From Eledone cirrhosa (taxonomy: Eukaryota), in NCBI GenBank assembly GCA_964016885.1, contig OZ024746.1, positions 64,914,001 to 64,978,000 on the forward strand: a stretch of DNA of 64,000 bases, in the 5' to 3' direction. The position numbers and the translations under genes are program-made. A model generated the notes under the pieces. The model was not told where the DNA came from, made no database searches, and saw nothing but the letters and a program-made list of their open reading frames with translations. The stretch's first letter is position 1. Every line of letters starts with the position of its first letter. Of the stretch, positions 1 to 62,653 are shown in pieces.

Positions 1-723
1 TATATGTATGTATATATATGTATATATATATGTATATATGTATATATATGTATATATATATATATATGTATATATATATATATGTATATATATATGTATA
101 TATGTACATATGTATATATATATATATGTATATATATATGTATATATGTACATATGTATATATATATATATGTATATATATGTATATATATATATATATA
201 TATATATATATGTATATATGTATATATATATGTATATATATATGTATGTATATATATATATGTATATATATATATATGTATATGTATGTATATATATATG
301 TATATATATATATATGTATATATATATATATATATATATATGTATATATGTATATATATATGTATGTATATATGTATATATATATATATATATATATATG
401 TATATATGTATATATATATGTATGTATATATGTATATATGTATATATATATATATATATGTATATATGTATATATATATGTATATATATATATATGTATA
501 TATGTATATATATATGTATATATATATGTATATATATATATGTATATGTATATATATATGTATATATATATATGTATATATATATGTATATATATATATG
601 TATATATATATGTATATATATATATATATATATATATGTATATATATATATGTATATATATATATATATATATGTATATATATATGTATATATATATGTA
701 TATATATATATATGTATATATAT
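1..723. repeat. (TA)nTG/TATG irregular microsatellite
   Basis: Direct reading; the interrupting G is almost always on the + strand. Confidence 0.98.
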
Positions 724-880
724 ATTGTTATACTTTGGGAGGGTCATGTTGCCAATAAGAAACACACGCACCAGTTGCTTTCACTTCAATTTAATTTAAT
801 ATATATTTATAAATTTACAAATTTATAAATTTCTGGTTGGTTGGCTGGTTCCACAACCAGATAGTTGTTTATATATATAT

Positions 881-925
881 AGTCATAGTTCTTTCGTCAC
901 ACACTCTGTGACCTCTTCAGTGACT
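881..925 (-). ncRNA. Minimal type I hammerhead ribozyme in PLE-1 3' UTR/pLTR
   Basis: Reverse complement reads AGTCA-CTGAAGA-G-GTCACA gagtg TGTGAC-GAAA-GaaC-TA-TGACT (stem I, core, stem II, GAAA, short stem III, CUA cleavage triplet). Confidence 0.8.
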
Positions 926-1222
926 GGGGATTTCTTTCTTCGTTTCTGTGCCTTTCCTTTCTTCTATCCTACGCCATTTTGTTTGTGTGTGGGTTGCGTG
1001 CTCAGTTTGCGCATACGCCACATCCGGGTGTCTGTGTGTGTTTGTGTTCATTTTTCTATTTTTCTATTTATATTTGTTTGTTTATTTATTTATTTTTTGT
1101 TGGTTGGTTGTTTGTTCTATGTGTGTGTGTGTTTTCATTTTGTCTTGTGTGTGTTTTCATTTTGTGTGTGTTTTCAATTGTAAGTTGTTTGTTCTATGTG
1201 TGTGTGTGTTTTCATTTTGTCC

Positions 1223-58587: not shown

Positions 58588-59231
58588 ATATATATGTGTA
58601 TATATATATATATATGTATGTATATATATGTAGGTATGTATATATATATATGTATATATATGTAGGTATGTATATATATATATATATATATATGTATATA
58701 TATGTATATATATATATATATATGTATATATATGTATATATATATATGTATGTGTATATATATATATATATGTATATCTATGTATGTATGTATATATATA
58801 TATATGTATATCTATGTATGTATGTATATATATATATATCTATGTATGTATGTATATATATATATATGTATGTATGTATGTATGTATGTATATATATATA
58901 TCTATGTATATATATATATCTATGTATATATATATATCTATGTATATATATATATGTATGTATATATATGTATGTATATATATGTATGTATATATATGTA
59001 TATATATGTATGTATATATATGTATGTATATATATGTATGTATATATATGTATGTATATATATGTATGTATATATATGTATGTATATATATGTATGTATA
59101 TATATGTATATATATATATGTATATATATATATGTATGTATATATATGTATGTATATATATGTATGTATGTGTATGTATGTGTATGTATGTATGTATATA
59201 TATATATGTATATATATATATATATGTATAT

Positions 59232-62200
59232 AAATTGGAATAAATGCTCTGAAATAGCGATATATATGTGAATATAGACATAGAATATTCGAAAATATTC
59301 TGTATGTTTATAATAAACATTTTGAAGACCTAATCGCTATAGAATAGAATACGTCACGTATTACAATTAGATTCTCGATAAAAGCAAGGGAAGTAATCTA
59401 CGCGTTTCATTCTTATTAGAAATCTTCAGGACTACATATCCAGTGCTTTTATCGAGAATGACACAGCTAGAGACTTATAGAATACTTAGCTGTGTACAGG
59501 AACTGGTTTGAAAGAGCGGTTGCCGGTCCGGCAGAAATTAGAAATTGGAATAAATGCTCTGAAATAGCGATATATATGTGAATATAGACATAGAATATTC
59601 GAAAATATTCTGTATGTTTATAATAAACATTTTGAAGACCTAATCGCTATAGAATAGAATACGTCACGTATTACAATTAGTTTCTCGATAAAAGCAAGGG
59701 AAGTAATCTATGCGTTTCATTCTTATTAGAAATCTTCAGGACTACATATCCAGTGCTTTTATCGAGAATGACACAGCTAGAGACTTATAGAATACTTAGC
59801 TGTGTACAGGAACTGGTTTGAAAGAGCGGTTGCCGGTCCGGCAGAAATTAGAAATTGGAATAAATGCTCTGAAATACCGATATATATGTGAATATAGACA
59901 TAGAATATTCGAAAATATTCTGTATGTTTATAATAAACATTTTGAAGACCTAATCGCTATAGAATAGAATACGTCACGTATTACAATTAGATTCTCGATA
60001 AAAGCAAGGGAAGTAATCTACGCGTTTCATTCTCATTAGAAATCTTCAGGACTACATATCCAGTGCTTTTATCGAGAATGACACAGCTAGAGACTTATAG
60101 AATACTTAGCTGTGTACAGGAACTGGTTTGAAAGAGCGGTTGCCGGTCCGGCAGAAATTAGAAATTGGAATAAATGCTCTGAAATAGCGATATATATGTG
60201 AATATAGACATAGAATATTCGAAAATATTCTGTATGTTTATAATAAACATTTTGAAGACCTAATCGCTATAGAATAGAATACGTCACGTATTACAATTAG
60301 ATTCTCGATAAAAGCAAGGGAAGTAATCTACGCGTTTCATTCTTCTAGGAAATCTTCAGGACTACATATCCAGTGCTTTTATCGAGAATGACACAGCTAG
60401 AGACTTATAGAATACTTAGCTGTGTACAGGAACTGGTTTGAAAGAGCGGTTGCCGGTCCGGCAAAAATTAGAAATTGGAATAAATGCTCTGAAATAGCGA
60501 TATATATGTGAATATAGACATAGAATATTCGAAAATATTCTGTATGTTTATAATAAACATTTTGAAGACCTAATCGCTATAGAATAGAATACGTCACGTA
60601 TTACAATTAGATTCTCGATAAAAGCAAGGGAAGTAACCTACGCGTTTCATTCTTATTAGAAATCTTCAGGATTACATATCCAGTGCTTTTATCGAGAATG
60701 ACACAGCTAGAGACTTATAGAATACTTAGCTGTGTACAGGAACTGGTTTGAAAGAGCGGTTGCCGGTCCGGCAGAAATTAGAAATTGGAATAAATGCTCT
60801 GAAATAGCGATATATATGTGAATATAGACATAGAATATTCGAAAATATTCTGTATGTTTATAATAAACATTTTGAAGACCTAATCGCTATAGAATAGAAT
60901 ACGTCACGTATTACAATTAGATTCTCGATAAAAGCAAGGGAAGTAATCTACGCGTTTCATTCTTATTAGAAATCTTCAGGACTACATATCCAGTGCTTTT
61001 ATCGAGAATGACACAGCTAGAGACTTATAGAATACTTAGCTGTGTACAGGAACTGGTTTGAAAGAGCGGTTGCCGGTCCGGCAGAAATTAGAAATTGGAA
61101 TAAATGCACTGAAATAGCGATATATATGTGAATATAGACATAGAATATTCGAAAATATTCTGTATGTTTATAATAAACATTTTGAAGACCTAATCGCTAT
61201 AGAATAGAATACGTCACGTATTACAATTAGATTCTCGATAAAAGCAAGGGAAGTAATCTACGCGTTTCATTCTTATTAGAAATCTTCAGGACTACATATC
61301 CAGTGCTTTTATCGAGAATGACACAGCTAGAGACTTATAGAATACTTAGCTGTGTACAGGAACTGGTTTGAAAGAGCGGTTGCCGGTCCGGCAGAAATTA
61401 GAAATTGGAATAAATGCTCTGAAATAGCGATATATATGTGAATATAGACATAGAATATTCGAAAGTATTCTGTATGTTTATAATAAACATTTTGAAGACC
61501 TAATCGCTATAGAATAGAATACGTCACGTATTACAATTAGATTCTCGATAAAAGCAAGGGAAGTAATCTACGCGTTTCATTCTTATTAGAAATCTTCAGG
61601 ACTACATATCCAGTGCTTTTATCGAGAATGACACAGCTAGAGACTTATAGAATACTTAGCTGTGTACAGGAACTGGTTTGAAAGAGCGGTTGCCGGTCCG
61701 GCAAAAATTAGAAATTGGAATAAATGCTCTGAAATAGCGATATATATGTGAATATAGACATAGAATATTCGAAAATATTCTGTATGTTTATAATTTCTAA
61801 TTTCTGCCGGACCGGCAACCGCTCTTTCAAACCAGTTCCTGTACACAGCTAAGTATTCTATAAGTCTCTAGCTGTGTCATTCTCGATAAAAGCACTGGAT
61901 ATGTAGTCCTGAAGATTTCTAATAAGAATGAAACGCGTAGATTACTTCCCTTGCTTTTATCGAGAATCTAATTGTAATACGTGACGTATTCTATTCTATA
62001 GCGATTAGGTCTTCAAAATGTTTATTATAAACATACAGAATATTTTCGAATATTCTATGTCTATATTCACATATATATCGCTATTTCAGAGCATTTATTC
62101 CAATTTCTAATTTCTGCCGGACCGGCAACCGCTCTTTCAAACCAGTTCCTGTACACAGCTAAGTATTCTATAAGTCTCTAGCTGTGTCATTCTCGATAAA

Positions 62201-62386
62201 AGCACTGGATATGTAGTCCTGAAGATTTCTAATAAGAATGAAACGCGTAGATTACTTCCCTTGCTTTTATCGAGAATCTAATTGTAATACGTGACGTATT
62301 CTATTCTATAGCGATTAGGTCTTCAAAATGTTTATTATAAACATACAGAATATTTTCGAATATTCTATGTCTATATTCACATATAT
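59232..62386. repeat. Retrozyme-like 310-bp tandem array 2 (about 8.3 units RNA-minus, then about 1.9 units RNA-plus; inversion at 61792-61794)
   Basis: Same 310-bp unit with array-specific fixed variants; hammerhead core CTGAAGA. Confidence 0.95.
61903..61945 (+). ncRNA. Hammerhead ribozyme of the array-2 unit (representative copy)
   Basis: GTAGTC-CTGAAGA-tTTCT aata AGAAt-GAAA-CGCG-TA-GATTAC. Confidence 0.87.
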
Positions 62387-62653
62387 GTATATATATATAT
62401 GTATATATATATATGTATATATGTATATATATATATGTATATATGTATGTATATATGTATATATATATATATGTATATATATATATGTATATATATATAT
62501 GTATATATATATATGTATATATATATATATGTATATATATATATGTATATATATATATATGTATATATATATATATATGTATATATATGTATATATATAT
62601 ATATGTATATTTATATATATGTAAATATATATATATGTATATATATTTACATG

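Follow-up and report, generated by a model that had tools for sequence, protein, structure and literature searches.

Head-to-head insertions of Penelope-like elements and hammerhead retrozymes combine a long and a short 3′ end in TA/TATG tracts of Eledone cirrhosa

The window examined here is a stretch of 64,000 nucleotides from Eledone cirrhosa (assembly GCA_964016885.1, contig OZ024746.1, positions 64,914,001 to 64,978,000), and it contains no N bases. The presence of a retroelement chain, described earlier in a sequence-only reading, was confirmed: about 21 young retroelement insertions lie within a TA/TATG compound microsatellite that occupies 38% of the window. Between the tract pieces are four families of Penelope-like elements (PLE1 to PLE4), two arrays of a 310-bp hammerhead unit, three CR1-like and three RTE-like pieces of long interspersed nuclear elements (LINEs), an end of one further LINE, a 607-bp non-autonomous element (NA) in eight copies, and a single 190-bp element with a hairpin. 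This study concerns the insertions of PLEs and hammerhead arrays in which two inverted arms are fused at their 5′ ends, one arm usually carrying a long and the other a short 3′ end. The tract and the pieces of these two classes are as follows.

1..62645, no strand: TA/TATG compound microsatellite, 24 pieces, 24,346 bp, TATG on the plus strand
725..4730, minus: PLE1 arm with reverse transcriptase (RT) and C-terminal GIY-YIG, 5′-truncated, stop in the open reading frame at about 2405; short 3′ end without tail
4731..5639, plus: second PLE1 arm, GIY-YIG part and pseudo-long terminal repeat (pLTR), hammerhead-like core at about 5389; long end with a 58-nt tail
8770..10422, plus: 3′ part of PLE2 with GIY-YIG, single arm; short end
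12439..15211, minus: 310-bp hammerhead retrozyme array, 8.9 units; short end (phase 224)
15209..16707, plus: second arm of this array, 4.8 units, hammerhead at 15253-15318; long end (phase 255), junction overlap 3 nt
40995..42686, plus: 3′ part of PLE3 with GIY-YIG, single arm
52701..52800, minus: long arm of PLE4, 84-nt tail plus 16 nt; body and tail are contiguous in locus L082
52801..55534, plus: short arm of PLE4, C-terminus of RT, GIY-YIG-like motif from the translation, long 3′ untranslated region
59232..61794, minus: retrozyme array of subfamily variant 2, 8.3 units; long end (phase 253)
61792..62377, plus: second arm of the variant 2 array, 1.9 units; short end, overlap 3 nt

PLE1 to PLE4 each fit a single reading frame with RT plus a GIY-YIG endonuclease at the C-terminus. 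Pfam matched GIY-YIG in the plus arm of PLE1, in PLE2, and in PLE3; it gave no match for the frames of the PLE1 minus arm or for PLE4, and the RT motifs and the GIY-YIG motif of PLE4 were recognized in the translations only. The Cys linkers upstream of GIY-YIG appear to resemble those described for Neptune and Nematis. A candidate hammerhead core was located by pattern match near the 3′ end of PLE1, PLE2, and PLE4, and was not found in PLE3.

The 310-bp unit contains one hammerhead per unit (Rfam Hammerhead_HH9, E=0.0034, below the gathering score), and its stems I and II fold. With tandem non-coding units that each carry a type I hammerhead predicted to self-cleave, the sequence fits an animal non-LTR retrozyme. 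Its copies are young and dispersed: 443 matches were obtained in 40 scored of 244 candidates, and 1372 units of variant 2 were found by pattern search. A second hammerhead family with a unit of about 553 bp (1532 candidates) was encountered at L080:3907-5125 and 7493-8733; it is also two-armed, with long and short ends and a tail of about 120 nt.

The sequence-only reading had listed six head-to-head fusions with both 3′ ends in TA, and five of them (4731, 15210, 30200, 52800, and 61793) were recovered. Arms of the same family meet at 4731 (PLE1), at 15210 and 61793 (310-bp hammerhead arrays), and at 52800 (PLE4), where a 100-nt tail arm is joined to a 2.7-kb arm with an overlap of 16 nt between the arms. 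At 30200, a 5′-truncated CR1-like LINE is joined to a 5′-truncated NA with an overlap of 1 nt. Both extend further 5′ in relatives and read contigs, and this fusion is best explained as a rare two-RNA event or a later deletion. The sixth, at 43707, is not a fresh junction but the fixed hairpin centre of the 190-bp family, for which 2464 candidates exist; 40 of 40 scored matched over about the whole length, and 19 of 20 fetched copies had the same hairpin centre.

To determine which families are two-armed, junctions were counted in 230 sequences (1.30 Mb) using matches of at least 88% identity to a library of the window families and two families found nearby. Direct fusions within a family were head-to-head in 29 cases for PLEs, 35 for retrozymes, and one for NA, and tail-to-tail in none. 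The comparison of the two orientations, which had been proposed as a check, thus gave 64 PLE and retrozyme fusions against 0, but the bias was not general across element classes. Cross-family junctions were fewer (11 versus 65 within families) and showed no orientation preference, with four head-to-head, four tail-to-tail, and three collinear. They include L063 (PLE1/RTEc), L174 (RTEa/PLE1), and L264 (PLE2/PLE1); apparent fusions at L239/L224 and L219 were dropped, as they lie across 200-N gaps.

Two arms were present in 19 of 21 insertions of the 310-bp retrozyme (every locus among the 150 of 443 matches that were listed), in 9 of the 11 variant 2 places (the first 100 of 1372 matches in chromosome order), and in 22 of 29 insertions of the second family. 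The insertion L353, present twice, was counted once; its two copies stand in tandem beside an assembly gap, reflecting a local duplication or mis-assembly. No head-to-head partner was detected for NA at any of 58 focal loci outside the window, or for the focal RTEb and CR1 copies in the census, in which three RTEb 5′ ends abut gaps and are uninformative. Twin-priming geometry with non-overlapping arms was observed for NA at L295, for RTEa at L342 (in an evenly spaced sample), and for one PLE1 (L252). The earlier statement that all classes have the same junction style does not hold, because LINEs and NA are single-armed; the head-to-head form is a trait of PLEs and retrozymes.

The 3′ ends of the arms fell at two sites per family, an inner site giving the short end and an outer site giving the long end with the tail. 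In the 310-bp unit, the ends were located at phases 201-225 and 249-255, and the hammerhead cut at 86. The tails were about 30 nt (310-bp unit), 45 nt (PLE2), 58 nt (PLE1), 84 nt (PLE4), and 120 nt (second family) long. One long and one short end were combined in 74 of 75 classifiable pairs (P ~2e-21 versus 0.5), that is, in 28/29, 19/19, 21/21, and 6/6 pairs of the 310-bp retrozyme, the second family, PLE1, and PLE4, respectively, and no long+long pair was seen among them. Not counted among the 75 were six PLE pairs with an internal end and three pairs of the second family, one of them roughly long+short and two with ends of other kinds; the PLE4 pairs were drawn from incidental loci. Searches of the genome with the 3′ end of PLE4 and with the variant 2 retrozyme unit gave no match, which is uninformative. 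The sole exception, L066, had two short ends on arms of different variants. The pairing was also found in 3/3 PLE pairs of the evenly spaced sample, and in the cross-family pair L264, in which the PLE2 arm is long and the PLE1 arm short. An inverted 5′-truncated copy with a one-sided tail, which is a PLE hallmark, was present in all classifiable pairs of PLE1 (21/21) and PLE4 (6/6).

In 15 of the 27 PLE pairs that are not arrays, the 5′ reach of the short, tail-less arm exceeded that of the long arm; in the window, the short and long arms measured 4006 and 909 nt at 4731 and 2734 and 100 nt at 52800. Because of this, two independent initiations are needed rather than a fold-back copy. The proposal that breaks are healed by reverse transcription from both ends is right in that priming of PLE and retrozyme insertions occurs at both DNA ends, but not as a description of general repair.

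The two arms usually carry common variants. Only 1 of 29 two-armed insertions of the 310-bp retrozyme clearly mixes variants, and rarer variants are fixed in both arms at L061, L239, L351, L352, L354, L355, and L358. In the mosaic L356, variant 2 forms the two outermost units of both arms and variant 1 lies inside (1 unit versus 16). This single locus is as expected if one heterogeneous linear multimer had been copied two times starting at its 3′ end; a monomer circle would not fit. Arm-to-arm identity was above the between-locus median in 11 of 12 PLE1 pairs and 13 of 15 second-family pairs. The exception among the PLE1 pairs is the window pair at 4731, whose arms are 85-95% identical and derive from different subfamily copies; this pair probably used two RNAs.

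At the junctions of retrozymes, overlaps of at least 2 nt were found in 14 of 29 cases (13 if L347 is taken at the machine value), compared to 18% expected (P=2e-4). Fillers inside junctions, 26 nt of NA in L079 and 62 nt of RTEa in L293, are the only sign of opportunistic template use.

The polarity of the tract was not altered by the insertions. In the window, TATG is on the plus strand in 20 of 24 pieces, none is CATA-polar, and four are unpolarized or mixed. In all 91 insertions with two polar flanks (75 single, 16 two-armed), polarity was the same on both sides, and it was mirrored in none. The tract therefore predates the inserts, and the result argues against tract synthesis from both arms and against a fold-back artefact, either of which would mirror the flanks. 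The longest pure (TA)n run was 62 nt, which would weaken cruciform fragility as a general driver.

From the architecture, the long+short pairing, the common variants, and the unchanged polarity, we infer that the head-to-head units are likely made by a PLE enzyme that uses one RNA as template and primes on each of the two nicked strands. The RT-GIY-YIG protein of a PLE, probably as a dimer, would nick both strands of a near-palindromic TA target. One 3′-OH would start at the outer site and produce the tail, and the other would start at the inner site 30-120 nt upstream; both start sites would be about 75-200 nt downstream of the hammerhead core and not at its cut. Both primers would copy the same RNA, often multimeric and uncleaved, or two copies of one transcript, and the two cDNA 3′ ends would join via microhomology of 1-5 nt, each serving as template for the second strand of the other. 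For LINEs and the 607-bp element, entry would be by ordinary single target-primed reverse transcription, with occasional classical twin-priming inversions, and the 607-bp element may pair with the TATG phase of the tract and thereby give the chain its apparent polarity.

A stricter form of this mechanism, in which a PLE RT dimer makes two copies of one uncleaved multimeric RNA, using two fixed, mutually exclusive starts, one per cut strand, and the cDNAs prime each other's second strand, is offered tentatively, as it may prove wrong slightly more readily than right. If true, one reaction would yield the inverted pLTR of PLEs, the one-sided tail, and ready-made inverted retrozyme arrays, and animal retrozymes would travel as cargo of PLEs, with linear multimers and not circles as templates.

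Much of this agrees with published PLEs of the clades with C-terminal GIY-YIG, as described in the available parts of two sources (PMC8557442, PMC11167929). The hallmarks given there are an inverted 5′-truncated copy, a 30-40-bp tail often at one end, and (TA)n bias (PMC8557442), and the 5′-end-fused inverted copy, one-sided tail, and (TA)n targets are the same here. In the anole, both strands are cleaved and extended by the PLE protein, which initiates at two internal sites that delimit the tail, prefers uncleaved RNA, and is a predicted dimer (PMC11167929, available part). The position of the hammerhead upstream of two internal RT starts is also common to both, as are two strands that are cut and extended, in the published case in vitro. 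The present data differ in that the long+short pairing was counted and is near-obligate (74/75), that tails range from 30 to 120 nt, and that the same architecture occurs in non-coding retrozymes and occasionally across two PLE families. Both-strand target-primed reverse transcription at two fixed starts is known for PLEs; what appears to be new is that the two start sites are paired almost obligatorily and that this also holds for retrozymes.

For animal retrozymes, PLE dependence has been proposed, with circle copying or local amplification (PMC7229834, PMC7761336, bioRxiv 10.64898/2026.07.22.740005; available parts). Published non-LTR retrozymes have the same 150-550-bp non-coding units with a minimal type I hammerhead each, in dispersed tandem arrays. 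Those arrays are described as head-to-tail, whereas the present ones are mostly two inverted arrays with PLE-type ends, and L356, a single locus, points to a linear heterogeneous multimer instead of a monomer circle. The words 'inverted', 'opposite', and 'orientation' are absent from the main text of PMC7229834; no inverted retrozyme arrays were seen in the available parts of the three sources, and the accessible portion of PMC13282606 does not mention retrozymes. A literature search of partly available texts yielded no report of double-primed retrozymes or near-obligate long+short pairing, and older PLE papers may describe the pairing. The origin of the inverted pLTR and tail of PLEs and the enzyme used by animal retrozymes are stated as open in the available sections (PMC8557442, PMC11167929, PMC7761336, bioRxiv 10.64898/2026.07.22.740005). 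In hundreds of very young retrozyme insertions, the reaction can be read at base resolution, with two start phases, one of each per insertion, and usually one template. These insertions provide structural support for PLE-driven spread of retrozymes, with arrays born at insertion, and exact predictions for an in vitro test.

Several points weigh against a PLE enzyme priming from both strands on one RNA. The census loci were mostly picked by similarity to window copies, so that the sample is biased, and long arms were favoured because the tail is part of the PLE1 and second-family queries. In vitro, start-site use by the anole PLE showed no strand difference (PMC11167929, available part), which does not explain an obligate pairing. 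The two retrozymes and the four window PLEs have no alignable sequence in common, so that a PLE enzyme is a putative driver of the retrozymes. Pairs from different templates exist (window 4731, L066, and L264), and about 8 of 51 retrozyme pairs have a near-palindromic centre and a short arm not exceeding the long arm, for which fold-back would also be possible. Target site duplications are unreadable inside TA tracts. Among Logan contigs of four public runs searched with 29300-30432, no listed contig bridges 30200; these contigs may come from other individuals or species and are the longest pieces only, so that this junction was neither confirmed nor refuted.

The alternative that survives best is single priming with fold-back, in which the cDNA snaps back, copying proceeds in the direction of the 3′ end, and the product is rejoined to the target at the inner AT-rich site. 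It would account for the common variants and the long+short pairing, and it is consistent with snap-back hairpins at L174 and L190 and with near-palindromic centres in 4/29 and 4/22 retrozyme pairs, in which the short arm was never longer than the long arm. It does not agree with the short arms that reach further 5′ in 15/27 non-array PLE pairs, both window PLEs included, and it cannot yield L066, L264, or window 4731, whose arms differ in sequence. Fold-back is unlikely as the main route and possible as a minority route.

The sequence-only reading itself proposed that breaks in TA tracts are healed from both ends with any retro-RNA, maybe by one promiscuous RT, giving a self-extending chain. 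The real cross-class fusion at 30200, a few others (L063, L174, and L264), the unrelated retroelement pieces inside the junctions of L079 and L293, and the preference of all families for TA tracts speak for it. The use of whichever RNA is available is contradicted by the rarer variants usually common to both arms and by the small number of unoriented cross-family junctions. LINEs and NA are single-armed. The 3′ ends follow family-specific rules, which argues against one promiscuous RT: PLEs and retrozymes have fixed long and short starts, RTEs have (GAT)n-type tails, and only the 607-bp element is oriented to the TATG strand; fixed starts point to dedicated machinery. Self-extension is inconsistent with flanks mirrored in 0/91 insertions, with pure (TA)n runs of at most 62 nt, and with the interstitial location of the locus, 64.9 Mb into a 102.6-Mb contig (3.0-Gb genome), by which a subtelomeric setting was also dismissed. 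The model is largely refuted as a general rule, and we consider it more doubtful than fold-back. The chain reflects PLE transposition into a common microsatellite niche, and a universal repair system is not supported.

HeT-A and TART form telomeric retroelement chains. Such chains resemble the present one in that 5′-truncated retroelements are separated by simple repeats, but they are terminal and head-to-tail, whereas this chain is interstitial, of mixed orientation, and splits a pre-existing tract. Long chains of this type are described for the Terminons of Athena elements (PMC6431247, available part).

Classical twin priming of the L1 type, in which the arms are the 3′ part and the inverted 5′ part of one RNA, is very improbable as the source of all junctions. 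In L1, a minority of insertions show it, and their arms are separate parts of one RNA that do not overlap. The two processes have in common that primers come from both target strands and that the arms are fused at their 5′ ends with microhomology, and non-overlapping arms do occur at L295 (NA), L342 (RTEa), and L252 (PLE1), the only loci with this geometry. In PLEs and retrozymes, the 3′ region is present in both arms, which begin at two fixed sites, share tens to thousands of overlapping nt, and occur in most insertions; because the arms overlap, twin priming is excluded for them. Joins between two L1 or cDNA ends have been reported in translocations (bioRxiv 10.1101/2024.12.14.628481). The nearly abutting arm ends at 15210, 61793, and 52800 had suggested twin priming, which was rejected since junction phases were scattered at other loci; other PLE4 tail arms vary in length, so that the overlap of only 16 nt at 52800 is incidental. 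Assembly or library fold-back chimeras are equally improbable: 200-N gaps lie beside some repeats and no independent contig bridged 30200, but the arms are not mirror images (3′ ends, lengths, junction phases, and sometimes variants differ), the flanking tracts are never mirrored, the window is free of N, and the same rule holds in four families with family-specific tails and matches the published PLE structure.

The remaining elements of the chain are the following.

8451..8597, plus: 3′ fragment of NA (607-bp non-autonomous element, SINE-like, that is, similar to short interspersed nuclear elements)
11439-11989, 19650-20199, 22570-23204, 23749-24332, 25589-26044, and 57993-58586, all plus: other NA copies
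17855..18549, minus: LINE 3′ fragment RTEa (RTE-like by reading), single arm
20460..22005, minus: 3′ part of the RTE-like LINE RTEb, (GAT)n tail, single arm
26387..30200, minus: CR1-like LINE (APE and RT), 5′-truncated, fused head-to-head to NA
30200..30432, plus: 3′ 233 bp of NA, 5′-truncated, in the only LINE/SINE head-to-head fusion of the window
30995..32737, plus: 3′ part of a CR1-like LINE, single arm
42829-43422, minus: third CR1-like copy
43653..43842, no strand: 190-bp high-copy TA-flanked element with a built-in 110-bp hairpin
44439..51278, plus: RTE-like LINE RTEc, intact 1040-aa APE-RT frame, (GAT)n tail, single arm; an array of about 505-bp units precedes it
56409..56730, minus: LINE-like 3′ fragment LINEd, single arm

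The NA family comprises 1038 candidates. The 607-bp element had no match in an Rfam scan, and the fetched loci revealed no autonomous partner; the partner would likely be a sequence-specific LINE. The array of about 505-bp units upstream of RTEc spans 44439-47600, and the same arrangement was observed at L215/L236. In the 190-bp family, half-hairpin fragments (about 54-110) also recur.

The chain had further been described as containing no two consecutive minus-strand pieces. This is correct only if 43653-43842 is left unoriented; when it is read as minus/plus, its minus arm directly follows the minus-strand CR1 copy at 42829-43422 and breaks the rule. The order is also at chance level: a block-aware shuffle (five head-to-head blocks, four minus singles, and 11 plus singles) gave P=0.10, compared to P=0.012 in a naive shuffle of single arms. 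Outside the window the rule fails, as 7 of 39 neighbours separated only by polar tract were minus-minus in the TATG frame. The sense strand of NA carries TATG at 50 of 51 polar 3′ flanks outside the window, and orientation to TATG was unbiased for CR1 (3:4), RTEb (7:7), and PLE1 (2:4). The plus-strand excess in the chain is therefore due to NA alone.

The TA-tract share of 38% in the window compares with 5.7% in 400 kb (40 evenly spaced 10-kb samples), of which the richest sample had 39%. An Rfam scan of the whole window was swamped by microRNA look-alikes of the TA repeats. Within the tract, polarity is CATA on both sides of the PLE4 insertion at about 52400-56000 and then reverts, as if a block of about 3.6 kb were inverted. 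At 5706-5861, a pure (TA)27 is enclosed by an inverted duplication of 51 bp (98%) that is specific to the locus and may record a hairpin-capped break; 5811-6035 was considered as unique DNA and rejected, being largely an older repeat. Short inverted CATA-polar bits of tract stand directly at element 5′ ends at 19634-19649 and 22006-22016, and were possibly templated during joining.

To the left, the chain extends about 12.8 kb beyond the window, with two further head-to-head insertions of the second hammerhead family, and ends at an assembly gap and a 24-kb 23-bp minisatellite. This minisatellite and more than 45 kb of other low-complexity satellite lie left of the chain across the gap (G000:C6, L161-L168). 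About 300 bp to the right of the chain, a spliced exon at 62960-63088 codes for the beginning of a Rubicon homology domain (Pfam RH_dom, E=2e-7); the exon upstream of it was not found, and the chain may lie in an intron or in the upstream region of a gene of the Rubicon/PLEKHM/DEF8 type. The segment at 62654-63350 has 95-bp terminal inverted repeats and resembles a miniature inverted-repeat transposable element.

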